Below, in pieces: positions 2,588 to 24,795 of a stretch of DNA of 64,000 nt. This stretch comes from a bacterium (GTDB lineage Bacteria; Patescibacteriota; UBA1384; VFKW01), in contig JAUSIS010000004.1 in assembly GCA_030647355.1 (NCBI GenBank), positions 4,066-68,065 on the forward strand, given 5' to 3'. The notes under the pieces were generated by a model. It worked only from the letters and a program-made list of their open reading frames with translations. It was not told the origin of the DNA and ran no database searches. Both the position numbers and the translations under genes were made by a program. Each line of letters opens with the position of its first letter. Positions within the stretch are counted from its first letter, which is position 1.

Positions 2588-2867
2588 ACTCCTTGAGATT
2601 ATTCAAAACCGAAAAATAAAGAAAATGCCCGAGCCGAAGCACAGACATTTTCTTGAGTGCATTTTATCCACTCACCTTTTTATCGAAACGCCAGTATCTA
2701 ATTATAGATTGGGCTTATTCGAAAAAAGGTAAGGGACTTTACTTCGGTAGCCTGGCTGCCCAGCCCTTTTCAAAAAAGAGCTGGATCCATGGCTTTGCGT
2801 CCCCGTCTCACGGCGGGTTTGCCTTTTCGGTTTTGTAGAGAAATTATACCTTATTTGATTAAGTTTG

Positions 2868-3926
2868 TCAATACTTTGTACCGGTTGAGGACATCGGTAA
2901 CAGTCGTCCTGTTTGGATGCAATAATTAATTGGCGACTGGTAGTTTAGACTGGCATGTCTTCTTTTGGAATTGTAGTAGGCAAGCCAGTGAGTTAAGTTC
3001 TTGTTAAATATTAAAAGATCTGGGTGAAAATGTCCATGATCTAACCATTCTTCCTGCAGGGTTCGGTTAAATCTTTCTACGACGGCATTGTCCTTGGGGG
3101 TTCTGACTCGGGAAAAGTAGTGCTCGATCTTTAGTTGCTTGCAGGCCTCTTCAAACTCCTTGGCAAACTCTGAGCCATGATCGGTCTGGATATTAACAAT
3201 CTGATCGTCAAAAAGATAATTAAGCCGCTTTAGAAAGTCACTGGCAGACCCCGAGCTATGGTTCTTGTAGGTATGGGCAAAGGCAATCTTGCCGTATTTG
3301 TCTATAGCGGTTAAGATATATCTTTTTAGACCAAACAGGTGAAGCACAATGGTATCTATTTGGATTAAGAACCCTAAAGTATTAGTGTTTCTGGTTTTAA
3401 GATCAGTTATCTTTTTCTTGGTACGGTTGGCCTTACTTCGCTCTTTTTGCTTTTCGATCTTTTGTGGATTTGGGTAGAGTTTATGTTTTTGGATGGTGTA
3501 GAGGATTTTATGGCAGGAAATATCTTCACCAAAACGCTCGTTGTATTCCTGACGAATCTTTTCTTTACCCTGAGAAAGATCTTGTTTTCTAATGAGCTTA
3601 ATCCGGTCTTCTTCTAAGAGGGTTATCTCTTTTTGCCGGACATGAATAGGAGCACGGGACTTATCTTCTAAAGTTTGGAAGTCGGCCGAGTCAAAACGAT
3701 CCAGGAACTTATACAAGGTTTTTCTGGCAATGCCGAAGTGCCGACAAGTGAAAGTGGCATTAAATTCTCCTTTAGTTTCATAGTAAATTATCCATTCAAG
3801 TCGACGCATTCCTTCGCGCGAGATGCTCTGCATTTTAGCAACCCGTCTCCATCTTTCGCAGCGGTCGAGGAGAATGTGAGGCCTTGATTTAATGAACGCC
3901 CATTTTTGTGTACTTTTTATACCCAT
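2868..3926 (-). CDS. IS481-family DDE transposase (rve integrase core with N-terminal HTH)
   Basis: The rve catalytic core is readable in the translation: ..IQTDHGSEFAKEFEEACKQLKIEHYFSRVRTPKDNAVVERFNRTLQEEW.. The size (352 aa) and single-ORF organisation fit IS481. The stop lies ~17 bp outside the left IR. Confidence 0.8.
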   Translation of the reverse strand: MGIKSTQKWAFIKSRPHILLDRCERWRRVAKMQSISREGMRRLEWIIYYETKGEFNATFTCRHFGIARKTLYKFLDRFDSADFQTLEDKSRAPIHVRQKEITLLEEDRIKLIRKQDLSQGKEKIRQEYNERFGEDISCHKILYTIQKHKLYPNPQKIEKQKERSKANRTKKKITDLKTRNTNTLGFLIQIDTIVLHLFGLKRYILTAIDKYGKIAFAHTYKNHSSGSASDFLKRLNYLFDDQIVNIQTDHGSEFAKEFEEACKQLKIEHYFSRVRTPKDNAVVERFNRTLQEEWLDHGHFHPDLLIFNKNLTHWLAYYNSKRRHASLNYQSPINYCIQTGRLLPMSSTGTKY

Positions 3927-3972: not shown

Positions 3973-4192
3973 TTATGCATACTTGTGTCTGATTTGTGTC
4001 TGATTTGTGCTCTATTCTGAAAATAGTTCGAACGTATTTCGGCCGTCAGGCGACCTGTCCCGAGCGACCTGTGGTGAGCGAAGTCGAACCAAGTCGAGGG
4101 AATAAAAACCCACCCACCTGAATTCTTGAACCTTAACAATTTCCAGTTTTTCTTTGGCGTTAATTACCAGGCCACCGCATCAGAAATTTATT

Positions 4193-4864
4193 CTAGTTCT
4201 GCCACGGGTATCTTACTTCTAAAATTTGTAGTGATTTGGAGTTTACAACCACTCTCATCGATCTTGCATTCTCAACACGATTATAATAATCTTTAGAGAC
4301 GCCGTAAACGAATCTCCAGTTAAGAGGCTGACTTTGGCGCTGGGATAAGGTAGCAAAATAACTACCACCTGAATCAGGATATCTCTGGTTGTAGACTTGG
4401 AATTGCGTTTCAGCAATAGTCAAAACCTCTGGAAAATCTTTAATTTTCAATATTTCAGATAAAGAGAATGGCTTATCACCATCGACCATAAGCTTAATTG
4501 ACGATTTAGTTATTTTATATTCTCCAGTCTCTGGTATGATTGAAAATAATAAATCAAACTTTTCTTCATCACTATGAAAATCGAAACTGTTGTCTGGTCG
4601 ATTGAAATTAAACGACCCATATTTTTTATCTACTATCACGGAATAAAGTTGTGGATTGCTAGAATACTTTCTGGCAATTTCAAAGGCTTTTTGTGCCTGT
4701 TCTAAAACTGAATTAGCATTCTTTAACTGTAGTTTACCAGACTCTAAAGTCTGGGAGAGATATTGGGGTATTTTTTCTTGCTTACCTGCATAGTAAAGGC
4801 CTACCAAGAGACTTGATATAGCTAAAATAATGGCAATGATTATAACCCAAAACCACTTTTTCAT
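4193..4864 (-). CDS. Hypothetical membrane-anchored protein (N-terminal TM helix)
   Basis: 223-aa ORF. N-terminus MKKWFWVIIIAIILAISSLLVGLYY. Flanked by inverted copies of a 13-bp core (see findings). Confidence 0.5.
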   Translation of the reverse strand: MKKWFWVIIIAIILAISSLLVGLYYAGKQEKIPQYLSQTLESGKLQLKNANSVLEQAQKAFEIARKYSSNPQLYSVIVDKKYGSFNFNRPDNSFDFHSDEEKFDLLFSIIPETGEYKITKSSIKLMVDGDKPFSLSEILKIKDFPEVLTIAETQFQVYNQRYPDSGGSYFATLSQRQSQPLNWRFVYGVSKDYYNRVENARSMRVVVNSKSLQILEVRYPWQN

Positions 4865-5113
4865 TTCCCTCCTTTAGTTAATAAAATCCCTTAAAATTTT
4901 CTTTTACCCTTCGACTCGACTCAGGGCAGGCAAAATGTGGTTCGAGCCGATGGATTCGACAAGCTCACCACAGGTATTTTTTCCAGGTTCTTTGGCAGTT
5001 TTCGAGGATCAAGAATTCGGGCGGGCGGGATTTTTTCGACCTCTTGGCCGTAAAACATTCGAGCCAACTTAAGAATAGACCCCCAGCGTTTACTAGTCAA
5101 GTTTTCGCCTGTG

Positions 5114-18852: not shown

Positions 18853-20227
18853 GTGGCAAATATTGATACGAAAAGGTTTGAGAGACGATTAGTACTGCCC
18901 AAAGGACAATTGAGATCATTTATAAGAGATTTGAGAAAAATACTCAAGCCGGTTAGTTTTTCGAAAAATAATTATTCGCAAACTATTTATCTTAATACAG
19001 AAGATCTTAGAGTTCCTTGGGGTATTTCTATAAGAGCTCGGCGATACGTGAAGAGACCTGATAAAAATATTACTATAGATTATTTGAATGATTACATTTG
19101 CGAATTTAAGGAAGGGGGCTTCGGATCCTGACCGTAAGGAAAAAATTCGAAAAACAATGAAAATTGACGACTTTTGCTCCTGGAGTGAAAAAAAACTAGA
19201 AAAGAGAATCTCTAAAGTTAAGTTGCGTCCCCATGCTGTCTGCCAATATTATCGTCAGCATTATATTTCAGATAAAGAAAAGGACTTGCGTTTAACTATA
19301 GACAAAAACGTTCGGTATGGATATTTCGATCCGATAAATGGATTCTCTTGGATCGGTAATGATGGAAGCGTCCGTATTGAAATCAAGGCAAGTAAAGAAT
19401 CAATGAATTCGGAAACATATCAGGAATTATTGAAAATACTGCAGAGTAAAAATTATTTAAATGTAATCTCTAAAAAAAATCAAATCTACAATTTTCTTAA
19501 GGATTTGCGGTTTAAGTATGTAAATAAACTAATCAACGAGTTGCCAGAATATGAAATCGAATCAAAAATTTCCATCAGCGACAACGATCCATGGATGGTA
19601 TTATTTAAAATTAAAGATGCTTTGGATAATGGATTTGATAAGAATTTGGATTTAAGTTATTATCCGCATGTTGAATGCACATCAAGAGTATACTATTATT
19701 TTCAGAAACTAGTTGATCCGCAGATTGACGAGGTTATTAAGTTATCGTTCAAAATTAATAAATTTCGACTTATATACAAAGACGAAGCCAAATTTATTAA
19801 GGATAGTTACCATCTAGGATGTATTATAAAAAGAAAGGAAATCAAAAATCCATGGTTTAATTTCAATGTTTCTAACAGTAAAAAAGTGCTCAAGATAATT
19901 GAAAATAAATTAGGATCCTTTACCAGAAGTGACTATTTGCAACGCAATAGGTTGGCTATTTGGCCACTCAATAATGTTTCCGGCAGATTATACCGTATAG
20001 GGATTGATAAATGTACGAGTAATTCCGGAGTAGATTATCAAATGGAGATCGAATACGAAGGTAGAATTAAGGGAGAGTGGAAAATTAGTAAAAACACTGA
20101 AAAAGAGATATCTTCAGAGTTGGCACATTTGACAAATACTGTATTTAACCTCCTAAATAAGGACAAACCCACTGCCGCACCAACACAGGAAACAAAACTC
20201 GATATCTTAAATTATAGGAAGAGGTAA
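18853..20227 (+). pseudogene. VTC-domain (CYTH/triphosphate-tunnel, polyphosphate-polymerase-like) protein split by a +1 frameshift at a G5 homopolymer (19114-19118)
   Basis: ORF 18853-19131 carries KRFERRLVL...YSQTIYLNTEDL...SIRARRY. ORF 19088-20227 carries KVKLRPHAVCQYYRQHY...DLRLTIDKNV...VRIEIKASKE. Both parts match conserved blocks of the Vtc4-type VTC domain. Deleting one G of GAAGGGGGCTTC joins the frames. Confidence 0.5.
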
Positions 20228-20249
20228 GAAGAGAATTAAAATATTGTGG

Positions 20250-21713
20250 TTAAGTACGTGGTAGTTTTCTAACAATCCCTTTCTCGGCATCAACTTCGAC
20301 AAGGTCACCGTCCTTTAATATTTTAGTCGCATTTTTCGTGCCGATCACGCAGGGTTTGTGCATTTCCCGGGCCATAATGGCCGCATGACAAGTAATACCG
20401 CCCTCGTCTGTGACAAAAGCAGCAGCTTTTTCCATGGCTGGCAATAGATCTGGCGTGGTCATAGAGGTTATTAAGATGTCACCTTTTTCAACCTTGATTT
20501 GTTGTGAAGGATTATTGACTATTTTTACCGTGCCCTTAACTACACCCTTGAAAGCAATTTGGCCTTTTATAAATTTATCCGACGATGTTGATTTTGAAAT
20601 ATCATTTTGAATTAGATTGCCCGTTTCCCAATTGAATTTTCCACCCGTTACAGAAATTGAAAATCCCTTTTGGCGGTCTAGTATCTTCTCCTTGAGCGAT
20701 TTGATATCTTCTTTACCTATATTATATATTTCTTCTTTTACTAAAAATGGCATCAACTCGCCAGATATCCCGACTTTTTGGCCTATTTCATATAAGATTG
20801 GCAATAAGTTATAAGCAGATAAGTTGATACTATCTTTCACATAAGTTCTAAGGAAAATCCAATTTTGATATTGTTTAATCAATTTAATATTTTTATTATC
20901 AAAATTTAATTCTTTGAAAATTTGTTTTTGTTTTTCTTCTTGTGCTTTTTGTTCCTTAATAATATTTTTTAGTTCACTCGCGGCATTTTTAGATAATTCC
21001 ATAAAACGCTTGGCAACTTCTTCTCTTTGAAGTGATTTACCTATGAACCAATGATATGACATCCAATTAAATTGTTTAATGTGATAATCAATGCATTGAT
21101 TCTTTTGTTCGGATGAAAAATTCGGAAAATCTATGGCACTTTTTAGAGCCGATTTGCGTTCTTCTATGACAATACTATTATTATTCGGCTCGCTAAGAGT
21201 TTCTAGATAAGATTCTAGCTGATCTATTTTATTATTCATCGCAGCTTTTAAAATAATTAAATTATATGCTTTTTCTTGAAGAATGTCTGCCATTTGTACA
21301 GAACCCCGATAACTCATATAGCCATTAATTTCTATAAATGTTTTTAACTCTTTTTGAAGAAAATTGATTAATTCTAGAGGCGTCATATTGTGTAATTTTG
21401 ATTGATTATAATCTTTTTTGAACCTGATTTTGGTTGCGAGGTGAAATATTTTATTGGCGATTTTATCCGGGTACGAAAAATTCTTATCGACATTGTAGGC
21501 TAAAAATGATTTTGTAATTTCAATTTCTTCCTCGTCGAAATAAAGATCGCCATCGAAATATGCTATGGCTGAAATAGATTTGGGAATTTCAAATGCCTTG
21601 ATACTAGCGTGGAAACCGTCAAGATAATATGAGGTGGAAAGCGGAGTATTTATTTTTTTCATATTCCATAGCCATTTAATTGGGTGGCCAGCCATATTTG
21701 TTTTCATCTCCAT
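20250..21713 (-). CDS. PEP-utilizing-enzyme mobile (phosphohistidine swivel) domain protein with an unrecognised ~370-aa N-terminal region
   Basis: C-terminus reads GGITCHAAIMAREMHKPCVIGTKNATKILKDGDLVEVDAEKGIVRK, the classic PEP-utilizers motif. No ATP-grasp or PEP-binding TIM domain is recognisable. Confidence 0.6.
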   Translation of the reverse strand: MEMKTNMAGHPIKWLWNMKKINTPLSTSYYLDGFHASIKAFEIPKSISAIAYFDGDLYFDEEEIEITKSFLAYNVDKNFSYPDKIANKIFHLATKIRFKKDYNQSKLHNMTPLELINFLQKELKTFIEINGYMSYRGSVQMADILQEKAYNLIILKAAMNNKIDQLESYLETLSEPNNNSIVIEERKSALKSAIDFPNFSSEQKNQCIDYHIKQFNWMSYHWFIGKSLQREEVAKRFMELSKNAASELKNIIKEQKAQEEKQKQIFKELNFDNKNIKLIKQYQNWIFLRTYVKDSINLSAYNLLPILYEIGQKVGISGELMPFLVKEEIYNIGKEDIKSLKEKILDRQKGFSISVTGGKFNWETGNLIQNDISKSTSSDKFIKGQIAFKGVVKGTVKIVNNPSQQIKVEKGDILITSMTTPDLLPAMEKAAAFVTDEGGITCHAAIMAREMHKPCVIGTKNATKILKDGDLVEVDAEKGIVRKLPRT

Positions 21714-21821
21714 GTCCTTTGTTGAATATTATCTTACTTATTATGCAACAAATAATCGCTCTCTTCAATCTGAGCTCGAACCACTGCTTTGAGGGTATTA
21801 AATTTTAACCGAAAATCGTCA

Positions 21822-21837
21822 GAGGGGCCAGGCGGGA
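21822..21837 (+). repeat. Degenerate copy A of the tRNA-Lys 3' end, inverted relative to the tRNA gene
   Basis: GAGGGGCCAGGCGGGA. Compare the reverse complement of the tRNA-Lys 3' end, GAGGGCCAGGCGGGGATCGAACCC. Confidence 0.45.
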
Positions 21838-21845
21838 CGACAAGA

Positions 21846-22115
21846 TTACCGGCTAGAAAAATTTTGTAATAATGTGCTGTACATTTGGGCGTCTTCGGCA
21901 ATTTTAGAATTGTTTTTGAGATTTATTATCTTTATTTTTTTTAGAATATTAGTGATATATTCAGGGCAAGAAGAATAAGATATTTCTTTCTCTCTTTTCT
22001 GGGCTTCAGTCAAGAATCTTTCTGCCATGATCACAGAATTTCTCTGAAGACCTAGAGATATTCTTTTTAGATCCATCGCCATTGATTGAATAGCATATTT
22101 TTCATCGAATGTCAT
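21846..22115 (-). CDS. Hypothetical small protein (89 aa)
   Basis: ORF only. Its start overlaps the stop of the upstream 112-aa ORF (ATGA). Confidence 0.35.
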   Translation of the reverse strand: MTFDEKYAIQSMAMDLKRISLGLQRNSVIMAERFLTEAQKREKEISYSSCPEYITNILKKIKIINLKNNSKIAEDAQMYSTLLQNFSSR

Positions 22116-22450
22116 AAGACTTCCTTAAAAAATTTCTTTGTAAGCTTGTCAAATAGTTCCCTTACGACCATATCTTGGATTTCATTGCCACGATTATTTT
22201 GTTTAGGCCTGATATTAATGAATGAATTATAGTCGATTGTGTTTGTTGCAATATCTATACCACCACCCCAAAGATTTTCTTGCTTAGAACCATTTTCGAG
22301 CAACAATTGCTCGCAGTCGAAGTGTCTATCGCATCCGGCACAACATATTTCTTTTTCAGTATCAAAAACTGTTTTTATATATACCTCAAAAAGCTCTGCT
22401 AATTTTTCAATTTCTTCTTTCGAGTATGGAGTTTCCTTTATAATAACCAT
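22112..22450 (-). CDS. Hypothetical small protein (112 aa) with CCAGCDRHFDCEQ Cys/His cluster
   Basis: ORF only. Translationally coupled to the 89-aa ORF. Confidence 0.35.
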   Translation of the reverse strand: MVIIKETPYSKEEIEKLAELFEVYIKTVFDTEKEICCAGCDRHFDCEQLLLENGSKQENLWGGGIDIATNTIDYNSFINIRPKQNNRGNEIQDMVVRELFDKLTKKFFKEVL

Positions 22451-22512
22451 ACAGCTATTTTACCACAAAATAATTTTAAGGGAAGAAATTTCATATAAGA
22501 AACCCCTACGCA

Positions 22513-22531
22513 GAGGTGCCAGGCGGGGATC
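22513..22531 (+). repeat. Degenerate copy B of the tRNA-Lys 3' end (inverted)
   Basis: GAGGTGCCAGGCGGGGATC. Confidence 0.45.
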
Positions 22532-22554
22532 AAGAGGAACCTTTGATGGAGATT

Positions 22555-23406
22555 TTAAGAGAGTTCGTCGGAAGGTCGGTAAGTACTCATGTAGAGTACG
22601 TATAGTATAGTACTTAAAAAGATTACTGAAATCTTTATTTCTTCTGTTTCATTATTGAGATCGTAATTATGGGGTAACATGGACCACCTGAGATTTGCCT
22701 CTTTAGTTAAAGACTCAAAAAAATTAATTATGCCTTGTTCGCTTTGATCTTCGCTAGCTTTCTGGAATATCTTTAAATCTAGTTTATTGATACTGTTTGC
22801 CCACTCAGACCTTGATGCAGACAGTTTGCATATTTCTCTTTTATCTACAGTATTTACGACCCACTGCCCACCTCCAAGTAAGTTGCCATCGATTGTAGCA
22901 ATAGCTTCTTTGGCTACGTTAAATACTTTTCTGTTTGGAATATCCAAAATAGCCATATGGTTATCATTTTTAAATAATTCAACTAACCCATTATTTATAT
23001 TTGCCTTAATGTTATTATTGGAACCATCATAGATAGAAAATACACCATTCAAAGATGATCCATGATTATCCATGTAGCTATAACTAAGAACCAAGTTGCC
23101 TAGTGCGGCTAAATTATTGTTTTGATAGTACCCGATTGTTCCTTTGATATCGACTTTTGTCAGTATGCGGTTCGCTTTTGTCAGCTGAGAAAATTCAATA
23201 TCTTGAGTTCCAGTCATCACATTGCCCTTTAATAAATTATTAGAATAAGCCATCATATTTTCTGTTCTACTAGTAATGTCTTCAGAAGTTTTACTTAAAG
23301 CTTTGCCAGTTTTATTTATCCAAATGAATCTCTTAATTATGAACACCATGACTACTAGCCAAACAATACCAAATGCAATCAAAAATAATATCTGTTCTAA
23401 ACTCAC
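22555..23406 (-). CDS. Hypothetical membrane-anchored protein (283 aa), Asn/Ser-rich
   Basis: N-terminal TM helix ILFLIAFGIVWLVVMVFII. No recognisable domain. Confidence 0.4.
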   Translation of the reverse strand: MSLEQILFLIAFGIVWLVVMVFIIKRFIWINKTGKALSKTSEDITSRTENMMAYSNNLLKGNVMTGTQDIEFSQLTKANRILTKVDIKGTIGYYQNNNLAALGNLVLSYSYMDNHGSSLNGVFSIYDGSNNNIKANINNGLVELFKNDNHMAILDIPNRKVFNVAKEAIATIDGNLLGGGQWVVNTVDKREICKLSASRSEWANSINKLDLKIFQKASEDQSEQGIINFFESLTKEANLRWSMLPHNYDLNNETEEIKISVIFLSTILYVLYMSTYRPSDELS

Positions 23407-23469
23407 TTTCTCCTCCGTTCATGAATAATTATAACATATAAGAACTTTTTCGGGTGCTTATATGTTATA

Positions 23470-23488
23470 GAGGGCCAGGCGGGGATCC
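23470..23488 (+). repeat. Copy C of the tRNA-Lys 3' end (inverted)
   Basis: GAGGGCCAGGCGGGGATCC. Confidence 0.5.
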
Positions 23489-23653
23489 TTCTCCCCCATC
23501 GTTTCACTCCTCCTCTGAAGCCTGGGACTTTTGCTGACGGCTCACAAAAACTGTTCGCCTATTCCTCCACTGGAGGCGCAAAAGTTCCCTTCGATCCCCT
23601 TATTTATTGGCTCAGATAAAATAACCCCATCTTGCGACAGGGTTATTTTATCT

Positions 23654-23677
23654 GAGGGCCAGGCGGGGATCGAACCC
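23654..23677 (+). repeat. Copy D of the tRNA-Lys 3' end (inverted), 24/24 identity, immediately preceded by a 15-bp-stem hairpin (23613-23654)
   Basis: GAGGGCCAGGCGGGGATCGAACCC equals the reverse complement of GGGTTCGATCCCCGCCTGGCCCTC (tRNA-Lys T-arm plus acceptor 3' strand). The adjacent hairpin is CAGATAAAATAACCC..GGGTTATTTTATCTG. Confidence 0.6.
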
Positions 23678-23795
23678 ATGATTTCAATGAATCGCATTGA
23701 TTTTTCGATCAGTTTACTCCATATTGAAGTGTTGACGGATATAGTGTTTTTTTGGTATAATAATTTAGAAATAAGGTTTATTTTATTTTTCTATT

Positions 23796-24121
23796 GGGCC
23801 AGTAGCTCAGTGGTAGAGCAGGGGCCTTTAATAATAAGAGCCTTTGCAGAGAAAAACAATCTGCAAAGTGGACGTCGCTATATGCTGGAAACCCCGTTGT
23901 TGCCGATGGTACTCGTTCGTAAGAGCAGTGAAAATCCATTCGGTGCGGACAATCAGCAGGAAACCCCGCCAAAGACGGGGGCTCCTCAGAGACTACACGC
24001 GATGCACCTGAAATGGTGAAGATATAGTCCAGACTACAATCCGCCAGCTGGCGGAGCTAGGGTAACTTAGTGTGGTAAGTTAAGCCTCGTGTCGCGGGTT
24101 CGATCCCCGCCTGGCCCTCCA
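23796..24121 (+). tRNA. tRNA-Lys (anticodon UUU) interrupted in the anticodon loop. Exon 1 is 23796-23828, exon 2 is 24080-24121 with encoded CCA
   Basis: Exon 1 is GGGCCAGTAGCTCAGTGGTAGAGCAGGGGCCTT. Exon 2 is TTAAGCCTCGTGTCGCGGGTTCGATCCCCGCCTGGCCCTCCA. Joined, they give a 7-bp acceptor stem (GGGCCAG/CTGGCCC), D-arm, anticodon stem GGGGC/GCCTC, loop CUUUUAA, T-arm GCGGG-TTCGATC-CCCGC. Confidence 0.75.
23829..24079 (+). ncRNA. Group I intron (IC3-like, tRNA-Leu(UAA)-intron family) inserted between anticodon-loop positions 34/35 of tRNA-Lys; no ORF
   Basis: Conserved R element CAGAGACTACACG (23987-99) and S element AAGATATAGTCC (24019-30) form P7. A P9-like hairpin CCGCCAGCTGGCGG is present. 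The 5' exon ends in U, the intron ends in G (24079), and the intron 5' end TAATAATAAGAGCCTT resembles cyanobacterial tRNA-Leu introns. Confidence 0.75.
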
Positions 24122-24273: not shown

Positions 24274-24795
24274 CTAATCATAACTTGAAGAAGTGCGGCG
24301 GATGCCGCCAGTTACGATTATCAATAATACTGGCGCAATTGTCCAGAATAAGCGGTAATCAATAATAAATCTGGCCATTTTGGAGGTTTCCTGGAGACCT
24401 TGACGCATTTCCGGTGGCATAAAGGTTGCAACTGCAGAGAGTAGTAGGACGGCATTAAAAAAACTGTAGGCAATGATTTCAATAGGAGAAAGTAGTCCGC
24501 GGGTACTCTTGCCGCCTAAACCGGATTTGCCAGCGACTAGGAAAGCTACTACAAGAAAAACGACTGCCTGGATGGTAAAAGGGGAAATATTAGCTTGAAT
24601 CCAGACTGAATTGGCAAAAGTTTTATTGCCAGTAAAAAAAAGCCGAATCGGTTCAACGACGACGGAAGATACAACTATACCGGTATAGATTGAGAGCAGG
24701 AAAGAAACAACGCGATCGCGTTGCATTATAAAACCGAATCCAACGGCTATGACCAGAAAGATGATAATGAAGACATCCCACGAGGGCACGCTCAT
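24274..24795 (-). CDS. Hypothetical polytopic membrane protein
   Basis: 173-aa hydrophobic ORF. Confidence 0.4.
   Translation of the reverse strand: MSVPSWDVFIIIFLVIAVGFGFIMQRDRVVSFLLSIYTGIVVSSVVVEPIRLFFTGNKTFANSVWIQANISPFTIQAVVFLVVAFLVAGKSGLGGKSTRGLLSPIEIIAYSFFNAVLLLSAVATFMPPEMRQGLQETSKMARFIIDYRLFWTIAPVLLIIVTGGIRRTSSSYD

Follow-up and report, generated by a model that had tools for sequence, protein, structure and literature searches.

The 64,000-nucleotide stretch of DNA analysed here (the window), which comes from the Patescibacteria, carries a tRNA-Lys(UUU) gene and, within 2.3 kb of it and on the opposite strand, four copies of its 3′ end (A to D), which are direct relative to each other. 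These copies probably are relics of att duplication at a tRNA-Lys gene that served as an integration hot spot, the promoter and the tRNA body having been inverted later. Such a footprint is of a known, CIME-like kind, the inversion being its unusual element.

In the history that we propose, a chromosomal tRNA-Lys(UUU) gene, which in this Patescibacteria lineage follows closely on dnaK-dnaJ, would first have received site-specific insertions at its 3′ end, and with every insertion the part of the tRNA between the T loop and the 3′ terminus would have been duplicated. The newest copy would lie nearest the gene and the older ones would have been displaced outward while decaying, giving the series D, C, B, A, all mutually direct; most of what was inserted, including the integrase genes, would since have been lost, leaving short att-flanked remnants comparable to CIMEs. 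The tRNA gene would originally have stood on the minus strand, as dnaK and the copies do, and the promoter, the leader and the tRNA body with its intron (23678-24095) would have been inverted afterwards. Because of this inversion of the body the copies would now appear inverted relative to the gene, and because identical 24-bp stretches of the tRNA 3′ end lie at both ends of the segment, the gene would still be intact. A tyrosine integrase is the presumed maker of the duplications, the order of events is likewise our reconstruction, and the inversion may have arisen either by recombination between inverted T-arm copies or by a replication template switch.

Copies of the tRNA-Lys 3′ end and the hairpins beside them

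The array comprises the following features.

21822-21839, minus strand: copy A, the most decayed, with 10 exact bases (GAGGGGCCAGGCGGGACG), 8 nt past the stop codon of the 89-aa gene
21846-22115, minus strand: 89-aa gene, overlapping the DUF5674 gene by 4 nt, its conserved partner
22112-22450, minus strand: DUF5674 gene, 112 aa (Pfam PF18924, E 1.6e-28)
22513-22535, minus strand: copy B (GAGGTGCCAGGCGGGGATCAAG), with 14 exact bases (GATCCCCGCCTGGC), about 19/23 with one indel
22555-23406, minus strand: 283-aa ORFan with a membrane helix at its N terminus, lying between copies C and B
23430-23469, minus strand: hairpin with a 16-bp stem directly 3′ of copy C (fold z = -2.4)
23470-23487, minus strand: copy C (GAGGGCCAGGCGGGGATC), 18/18, from the T-loop GATC to the first C of CCA
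23588-23612, plus strand: copy E, a partial T-loop/acceptor copy in the sense opposite to D (TTCGATCCCC...TGGC)
23611-23656, minus strand: hairpin with a 17-bp stem directly 3′ of copy D (arms 23611-23627 and 23640-23656)
23654-23677, minus strand: copy D, 24/24, T arm and acceptor 3′ strand

As the initial annotation had claimed, four inverted copies are present at 21822, 22513, 23470 and 23654, each occupying an intergenic gap between minus-strand ORFs, and the number of exact bases falls with distance from the tRNA, from 24 in D through 18 in C and 14 in B to 10 in A, with intervals between copies of 184, 956 and 691 bp. Their descent from the tRNA-Lys 3′ end, also proposed initially, is borne out by the perfect match of copy D and by the 10-mer GCCAGGCGGG, which occurs exactly five times in 64 kb, namely in copies A to D and, on the other strand, in the tRNA itself (24106-24115), where chance would give about 1.3 matches even with one mismatch allowed. 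The 24-mer had no match in 100 shuffles, and a scan of the window with an 18-mer gave no further copy beyond the chance level of 12-13/18. The motif of these tRNA-Lys 3′-end copies is GATCCCCGCCTGGCCCTC.

The extent of the copies is what would be expected of att relics: B and C are identical to the tRNA from GATC in the T loop to the discriminator and the first C of CCA, and the T loop is one known crossover sublocation of tRNA-targeting integrases (Williams 2002, cited in PMC9897764; Islander, PMC4383910). Copy C with its flank extends to 22 nt at 95% (23466-23487), adding 3 nt of trailer, and copies A and B have one extra base in common (GAGGnGCC). Copy D may mark either the original position of the gene's 3′ end or the first displaced copy. 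It lacks an encoded CCA, which all intact relatives encode, and this observation speaks against the att-relic reading.

An integrase had been described initially as missing, and indeed neither a tyrosine nor a serine recombinase was found in the 64-kb window by Pfam scans of all ORFs of at least 100 aa, nor does the window hold a Phage_integrase domain; its only mobility gene encodes an rve-type transposase (2868-3926), about 18 kb from the array. A scan of viral contigs with the 18-mer gave no attP beside an integrase, its matches being either chance ones in high-GC coding DNA (L087, L088) or pieces of tRNA in two GC-rich contigs, and the 2.6-kb region had no blastn match among phage records. 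The intervals between the copies are too tiny for autonomous elements, so massive deletion has to be assumed. Counted against the att-relic reading are the lack of a recombinase gene in the window, the lack of a matching attP and the presence of the conserved DUF5674 and 89-aa pair between B and A.

Copy E had been noted initially as a partial T-arm copy near 23590 and was recovered as TTCGATCCCC at 23590-23599, where it serves as an outer arm in a long imperfect palindrome, which is centred on the hairpin and includes D. The hairpin next to copy D is present as reported, but its stem is of 17 bp rather than 15 bp and its limits are not 23613-23654. It is terminator-like without a U tract, the region around it (23560-23700) folds at -61.2 kcal/mol (z = -5.9), and relatives have a hairpin at the equivalent place past the intact tRNA. 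The arrangement of D and E as outer arms around this hairpin is one of the points that favour an origin without any integrase, in which template switching at hairpins past the tRNA would have generated palindrome arms, local duplications and the inversion alike. An antisense T-loop copy 44-55 nt past the tRNA end in three tRNA-Lys loci (L097 and L092 among them) and one tRNA-Ser locus points the same way, as do the palindromic T-arm-like debris CGATCCCCGCCGGAGATCG and the truncated 5′ copy upstream of the intact tRNA gene of L092, and the comparison with L102, which is consistent with a second inversion flanked by inverted repeats at 4011-5079. Template switching would account for copy E but not for three direct copies 0.2-1 kb apart with whole genes between them, and the T-loop start shared by B and C is a prediction of site-specific crossover; we therefore hold this origin to be unlikely.

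The hairpin next to copy C is unrelated in sequence to that next to D, and a -10 element resembling TGnTATAAT was read from the sequence in its 3′ arm, upstream of the 283-aa gene. Both of these hairpins are long, the 294-nt region folds with z = -7.3, and a small terminator-like hairpin overlaps the end of copy B. These structures would suit a role at the RNA level, in which the copies act as tRNA-like processing or termination signals on the minus strand and plus-strand transcripts are antisense to the tRNA-Lys 3′ end. Such a role is nevertheless very improbable, given that no copy has the 5′ acceptor strand required for a tRNA-like minihelix, that the intergenic regions of A and B are no more stably folded than shuffled sequences (z = +1.1), that terminator-like sites are not enriched, and that Rfam searches covering both strands of 21.5-24.4 kb and admitting E values up to 1 returned, besides the intron, one weak match, to RsaE (E 0.43).

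Other identities considered for parts of the array were set aside. The spacer between D and C has no credible Rfam match and is thus out as a known RNA; it was also rejected as a tmRNA or tRNA-like molecule, for it has no acceptor 5′ strand, ARAGORN was negative and relatives share just its first 20 nt. A retroelement primer-binding site, which would be the complement of the tRNA-Lys 3′ end, was discarded as well, the copies having no complement of CCA and no reverse transcriptase being present.

Orientation of the tRNA-Lys gene in the window and in relatives

The tRNA-Lys gene and its surroundings comprise the following features.

23678-24095: segment probably inverted, comprising the promoter and leader together with the intron-bearing tRNA body, between the arms of a perfect 24-bp inverted repeat
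23732-23761, plus strand: sigma-70-like promoter of the tRNA, TTGACG-18-TATAAT with a TG extension, 11/12 consensus positions
23762-23777, plus strand: tRNA leader (ATTTAGAAATAAGGTT), similar to the leader in L092
23796-24121, plus strand: tRNA-Lys(UUU) gene with group I intron (joined exons)
23796-23828, plus strand: tRNA-Lys(UUU) 5′ exon, which joins 24080-24121 to give a canonical tRNA
23829-24079, plus strand: candidate group I intron of 251 nt in the anticodon loop (Rfam RF00028)
24080-24121, plus strand: tRNA-Lys 3′ exon with encoded CCA at its end (joined-exon ARAGORN run)
24096-24119: right arm of the 24-bp inverted repeat, within the tRNA-Lys 3′ exon
24274-24795, minus strand: 173-aa membrane-protein gene, the last of a conserved grpE-dnaK-dnaJ block

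The array lies at a break in synteny. The 173-aa protein is 87% identical to its homolog in L082, 72% in L083, 57% in L085 and 41% in L092, and nothing to the left of its gene is shared; in the four closest relatives (DnaK 78-85% identical) synteny ends exactly here, with no tRNA-Lys at that place, and no empty site was found in a close relative. GC content is 0.32-0.35 at 19-23 kb and 0.38-0.45 elsewhere in the window. The same arrangement is found in two assemblies, that of the window and the Logan contig L081, and an assembly artefact was rejected on the grounds that the 24-bp repeat is shorter than assembler k-mers and the two assemblies agree.

The relative that bears most directly on the ancestral orientation is L092, which, together with L095 and L097, came from a metagenome scan with a 22-mer of the tRNA end. 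Its gene order is grpE-dnaK-dnaJ-173-aa homolog-tRNA-Lys(UUU), and its tRNA-Lys gene, the 3′ half of which is identical to that of the window, has no intron and is encoded on the same strand as dnaK, as copies A to D are in the window. Downstream of it stand a hairpin and then a decayed direct 3′ copy ending in CCA, followed by aspS where the window has the array; decayed direct 3′ copies downstream of tRNA-Lys were also seen in L095, L097 and L015, which agrees with the initial suggestion of att-relic behaviour. The leader of the intact L092 gene matches that of the window, with 0/1000 shuffles scoring as high, and since this leader is shared, the inverted piece would be the orthologous gene and not an import; the likeness of the two promoters is not significant (152/1000 shuffles), so that significance is confined to the leader.

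On the minus strand, copy D is followed downstream by its hairpin and then by GGGGATCGAAGG / ATAAATAAGGGGATCGAAGG, resembling the flank of the intact tRNA in relatives (against L097, 2/1000 shuffles score as high), and the flank of the present tRNA 3′ end has no such similarity. Flipping 23678-24095 in silico renders the window colinear with L092 (173-aa gene, tRNA exons and 3′ end on one strand) and makes copies A to D direct relative to the tRNA gene. The initial suggestion that an inversion underlies the orientation of the copies is thus supported by the strand of the L092 gene and by the flank of D. Ten of the Patescibacteria loci fetched by DnaJ, with L092 (fetched by DNA scan) included, have a tRNA-Lys(UUU) gene no more than a few kb from dnaJ, co-directional with it in seven and opposite to it in three. 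As a point against the inversion, the ancestral orientation is fixed by one syntenic relative, L092, and the three opposite loci are more distant. A scan of a genome collection with DnaJ returned distant relatives only (best identity 41%), with the motif in none of them, and a metagenome scan with the 173-aa protein gave no match.

The perfect 24-bp inverted repeat formed by copy D and the tRNA 3′ end brackets 418 bp that include the promoter, and the tRNA gene is intact in either orientation, features that also lend themselves to a reversible switch in which the segment flips the promoter and the tRNA, the other orientation reading into the 283-aa and DUF5674 genes. The likeness is to invertible promoter segments of the fimS and hin type, in which short perfect inverted repeats likewise surround a few hundred bp with a promoter. 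Unlike those systems, the window encodes neither an invertase nor any other recombinase of the tyrosine or serine type, a single orientation is seen in the two assemblies and the repeat is a piece of a tRNA gene; in addition, the flipped tRNA would have no encoded CCA. We regard such a switch as a very faint prospect.

Genes between the copies

The enclosed proteins had been put forward initially as candidates for defence or toxin-antitoxin functions, a proposal that finds no backing in PADLOC, PHROGs or NCBIfam, where the one match is a weak PADLOC hit. That hit belongs to the 283-aa protein ('2TM effector', E 4e-4), which matches no family at curated cut-offs (Pfam DUF948 falls below cut-off), gives nothing against NCBIfam or PHROGs, and has a single homolog among 5.8 billion proteins (L102, 64% identity), in a neighbourhood that differs from that of the window. 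The DUF5674 gene has 866 homologs at 62-83% identity across Patescibacteria, and its structure model (pLDDT 94) has no clear structural relative. Its overlap with the 89-aa gene recurs in L098-L101, L103 and L104, and in L098 and L104 the pair stands in ordinary chromosomal contexts with no tRNA fragments detected (in L104, 50 nt upstream were covered). Being conserved across the phylum and at home in ordinary contexts, the 112- and 89-aa pair does not fit the defence or toxin-antitoxin role suggested for it, and short genes between the copies should accordingly not be read as defence cargo, one 'cassette' here being a phylum-wide gene pair.

A further relative is L103, a contig of 1.5 kb with a DUF5674 protein 83% identical to that of the window, in which decayed tRNA-fragment copies flank the pair at the same two positions, one upstream of DUF5674 (the B position) and one after the 89-aa gene (the A position), and in which the neighbours on both sides of the pair differ from those in the window. 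Conservation of the B-type copy between the window and L103 is about 83%, on a par with the coding sequence. Taken with the placement of each copy exactly between genes, the different location of the 283-aa gene in L102 and one IMG/VR contig in which 315 nt separate a DUF5674 gene from a tyrosine integrase gene, this suggests that the tRNA-derived segments could be working recombination sites bounding small cassettes that are moved by a recombinase encoded elsewhere, the array being maintained in an integron- or CIME-like manner. Weighing against it are the lack of a tyrosine or serine recombinase in the window, the poor state of A and B (10-14 exact bases and an indel), which is unexpected for sites in use, and the occurrence of the pair without fragments in L098 and, as far as downstream sequence and the 50 nt covered upstream go, in L104; A and B also show no attC-like structure, and the short L103 contig may owe its likeness to shared ancestry of the whole array. 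We rate working sites as rather improbable, and still more doubtful is the extended proposal that tRNA-Lys 3′ segments bound cassettes in Patescibacteria which are shuffled by a recombinase encoded elsewhere, the same enzyme flipping the tRNA promoter toward or away from them by way of the 24-bp repeat. Were the fragments active sites, they would represent a new cassette system, for which the evidence is thin.

Integron arrays and CALINs resemble the window in having small co-oriented genes with a repeated site between them and no adjacent integrase. The attC sites of integrons are imperfect palindromes of 57-141 bp that fold into hairpins and carry conserved R and L boxes. In the window, by contrast, the site is a tRNA fragment, attC-like folding is lacking at A and B, no IntI-type integrase is encoded, and the cassettes have promoter-like elements of their own.

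Known integration systems and the intron of the tRNA-Lys gene

The att-relic reading draws its closest parallels from islands at tRNA genes and from CIMEs. Relics of attR and tandem islands at tRNA genes are likewise marked by repeated tRNA 3′ ends, each starting in a loop and reaching the gene's terminus (Reiter 1989; Williams 2002; Islander, PMC4383910; PMC9897764), and the copies here are similarly co-oriented, decay outward and lie at a synteny break with a drop in GC. Unlike such islands, the array has no integrase, its intervals are 0.2-1 kb long, the intact gene faces the opposite way to the copies and a gene pair with phylum-wide conservation occupies one of the intervals. CIMEs are left by decay and accretion of ICEs and IMEs, for example at the Streptococcus agalactiae tRNA-Lys gene, and share with the array the att-flanked remnants without integration and transfer genes in tandem at a tRNA-Lys 3′ end (review PMC5704250). 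CIMEs, however, keep intact attL and attR sites and can be mobilized by an incoming element (PMC5704250), whereas the outer sites are decayed here; furthermore, no related functional element is known, and the host belongs to the Patescibacteria and has a very small genome. As for a recombinase gene inside the element, its absence fits the definition of a CIME and not that of an island.

If the copies are att relics, the window records integrase-less remnants stacked at a tRNA-Lys integration hot spot in the Patescibacteria, a group whose mobile elements are poorly described. The later inversion would further mean that a tRNA gene can flip undamaged inside its own duplicated 3′ end, and island finders that expect direct repeats may be misled by such a locus.

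The intron adds a further peculiarity. With the intron in place the window tRNA-Lys was missed by ARAGORN, which on the joined exons (23796-23828 and 24080-24121) returned a canonical 75-nt tRNA-Lys(ttt). The intron matches the full RF00028 model at 48.7 bits (E 1.1e-10), just below the gathering score of 50, so that, at the level of sequence, both marks of a group I intron are present, a match to the catalytic core and exons that form a canonical tRNA. Insertion is predicted at position 34/35 of the tRNA, the splice position being deduced from a U at the end of the exon and a G at the end of the intron. Group I introns in anticodon loops of Patescibacteria tRNAs (PMC13011429) are similarly about 250 nt long, have no homing endonuclease gene and hide the tRNA from finders. 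The main text of that study discusses Asn, Asp, fMet, Leu and Arg tRNAs, Lys being absent there; the host here, by contrast, is tRNA-Lys(UUU) with the intron probably at 34/35. The tRNA-Lys genes of both L092 and L095 are intronless, and the window exons are 97% identical to the tRNA-Lys of L092.

The split tRNA-Lys gene and the repeats of its 3' end

The window belongs to the chromosome of a Patescibacteria (CPR) bacterium: Logan contig SRR13727527_7904 is identical to it across 21.9 kb, and its proteins match MDO8512925, MDO8512926, and MDO8512931 of a 140-kb NCBI MAG contig. It carries a tRNA-Lys(UUU) gene, missed by ARAGORN, which is interrupted by a group I intron (Rfam RF00028, 48.7 bits, E 1e-10, slightly under the gathering score) and whose joined exons form a canonical 75-nt tRNA-Lys.

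Features of the tRNA-Lys locus, from right to left
23796-24121, plus strand: tRNA-Lys(UUU) gene with a 251-nt group I intron
23732-23761, 35 nt 5' of the tRNA gene: near-consensus promoter, TTGACG-18-TATAAT
23654-23677, minus strand: copy D of the tRNA 3' end, a perfect 24-mer
23466-23487, minus strand: copy C, 18 exact bases shared with the tRNA end
Between C and B, minus strand: 283-aa ORF
22513-22535, minus strand: copy B, 14 exact bases
Between B and A, minus strand: 112-aa (DUF5674) and 89-aa gene pair
21822-21839, minus strand: copy A, 10 exact bases
Left of A, minus strand: 487-aa protein with a PEP-utilizers mobile domain

The initial annotation had described four inverted copies of the tRNA-Lys 3' end that lose similarity with distance from the tRNA and lie in intergenic gaps, and all of this is borne out: the 64 kb contain five occurrences of GCCAGGCGGG, one in the tRNA 3' end and four on the opposite strand (21827, 22518, 23474, and 23658), the shared bases fall steadily from D (24) to A, and each copy sits between minus-strand ORFs. 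Shuffles gave 0 matches to the copy D 24-mer, and the window holds no additional copy of the tRNA end above chance level. The partial T-arm copy (TTCGATCCCC, 23590) and the hairpin reported beside copy D are both real, the hairpin having a 17-bp stem. On the minus strand, copy D is followed by this hairpin and then by GGGGATCGAAGG, which pairs back with the T-arm portion of D, so that the entire stretch forms a long imperfect palindrome; a 16-bp hairpin likewise immediately follows copy C.

Orientation of the tRNA gene in the window and in relatives

The order comEC-grpE-dnaK is kept in four DnaK relatives (L082, L083, L084, and L085/L086; 78-85% identical), as are dnaJ and the 173-aa gene that ends this block in L082, L083, and L085/L086, whose contigs extend that far. 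Beyond the 173-aa gene, all content differs between the window and these three, and no tRNA-Lys is found there in the sequence covered by the relatives' contigs. The informative loci came from a metagenome DNA scan with a 22-mer of the tRNA end. One of them, L092, carries grpE, dnaK (72%), dnaJ, a 173-aa homolog, and an intronless tRNA-Lys(UUU) on the dnaK strand, with the same 3' half as in the window; downstream of this tRNA come a terminator hairpin, a T-loop piece in antisense, a decayed 3' copy in direct orientation that ends in CCA, and lastly an aspS-like gene. L097 has the order tRNA end, hairpin, ATAGATAGGGATCGAAGG, decayed copy, L095 the order intronless tRNA, small GIY-YIG gene, decayed copy, and L015 (Saccharimonadales) is arranged similarly. 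Across 10 loci with tRNA-Lys(UUU) near dnaJ (Patescibacteria loci fetched via DnaJ, plus L092), the tRNA is co-directional with dnaJ in seven and opposite in three.

In the window, copies A-D share the strand of dnaK, the intact tRNA-Lys occupies the opposite one, and three results tie copy D to what would be the original position of the gene. The sequence after copy D (the hairpin, then ATAAATAAGGGGATCGAAGG at +46) matches the 3' flank of the intact L097 tRNA, with 2 of 1000 shuffles scoring as high, and the sequence past the present tRNA 3' end gives no match in the same comparison. An antisense T-loop piece stands at +44 to +55 after copy D, in L097, and in L092. Finally, the leader immediately 5' of the window tRNA matches that of the intact tRNA gene of L092 (a score reached by 0 of 1000 shuffles), so the flipped piece is the orthologous gene and not an import. 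When 23678-24095 (promoter, leader, tRNA body, and intron) is flipped in silico, the order of L092 reappears along a single strand, and since a perfect 24-bp repeat brackets this piece, the tRNA is intact in either orientation. Comparison with relatives thus supports a probable inversion of the tRNA segment, which could have proceeded by recombination between inverted T-arm copies or, alternatively, by a replication template switch; the L092 tRNA gene has T-arm-like palindromic debris on either side, so substrates for the former exist in the lineage.

In L008 (12930-13080), a 10-nt antisense repeat of the T loop of a tRNA-Ser(TGA) lies 50 nt past that tRNA, a layout shared with the tRNA-Lys loci of the window (at copy D), L097, and L092. 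A truncated 5' tRNA-Lys copy in L092 (9859-10039; 53 nt, identical) lies 181 nt 5' of the intact gene, with a GC-rich insert holding a T-arm-like palindrome, CGATCCCCGCCGGAGATCG, between them. The GIY-YIG gene directly 3' of tRNA-Lys(UUU) and before the decayed direct copy (L095, 2919-3170; L015, 16230-16511) may be a small insertion that recurs in two distant Patescibacteria lineages.

Origin of the copies

Copies B and C match the tRNA from the T-loop GATC through to the gene end, the signature of integrases whose crossover point is in the T loop (Williams 2002; Islander, PMC4383910; PMC9897764); repeated insertion at an intact tRNA gene would leave direct copies decaying outward. The absence of an integrase, also remarked on initially, holds within the window: the 64 kb encode no tyrosine or serine recombinase, and the sole mobility gene, for an rve transposase, is ~18 kb away from the array. 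The intervals between copies are much shorter than any autonomous element would need. CIMEs, remnants between att sites whose integration genes are gone (PMC5704250), therefore offer the best comparison for the array. As originally proposed, a series of integrations at tRNA-Lys with subsequent inversion and decay best explains the array, the inversion being backed by the relatives; the footprint is of a known kind, in an unusual host and with the inversion as an unusual twist.

Enclosed genes and other loci

That the tRNA fragments act as working cassette boundaries has a low probability. The DUF5674 and 89-aa genes form an overlapping pair across Patescibacteria (62-83% identity). In L103, a 1.5-kb contig (83% identical), decayed copies stand at both positions matching B and A and the neighbours differ on both sides, so that either B and A would be older than the divergence of these two organisms or the pair would move with its boundary copies. 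No tRNA fragments surround the pair in L098, where it lies among msrA, msrB, rbfA, and pheST, and none lies downstream of it in L104, whose upstream coverage is only 50 nt. The 283-aa protein has one homolog among 5.8 billion sequences, with no tRNA fragment in the flank covered by its contig (L102). The suggestion that the enclosed proteins are defence or toxin-antitoxin cargo is unsupported, PADLOC, PHROGs, and NCBIfam giving no such signal. In one IMG/VR contig (L105, 4727-6336), 315 nt separate a DUF5674 homolog (59% identical) from a divergently oriented gene for a tyrosine integrase, at the end of the contig.

The 283-aa homolog adjoins a repeat arm like those which, in the window, enclose another ORF beside tRNA-Leu(CAG): a 223-aa ORF without family match (4193-4864, minus strand) within imperfect inverted repeats (4011-4145 versus 4963-5079). 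The gene order in L102 fits a possible inversion of the piece enclosed within 4011-5079. GC is down to 0.32-0.35 between ~19 kb and 23 kb (19000-23000), a stretch that runs beyond copy A across the PEP-utilizers and VTC-domain genes, with no fifth tRNA fragment at its left boundary. L091 and L094 are the same sequence (L094 reverse strand, ~3300-3420), in which a 3' fragment of this same tRNA-Lys is followed 15 nt on by the 5' fragment of that tRNA (GGGCCAGTAGATCAG); several tRNA pieces there each have GCGCTGATGAAGCTTGCTTACATGG before them, and an HNH-like ORF follows. Two GC-rich IMG/VR contigs (L089, 5040-5092; L090, 9440-9494) each hold a 31-nt 3' end identical to that of this tRNA-Lys, with no recognisable 5' half within 700 nt and another tRNA-like 5' end immediately after. 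A c-di-GMP-I-GGC riboswitch (2742-2832, minus strand; 67 bits, above the gathering score) has the rve-type transposase gene (2868-3926) on one side and, on the other, a 172-aa ORF without family match (2069-2587).
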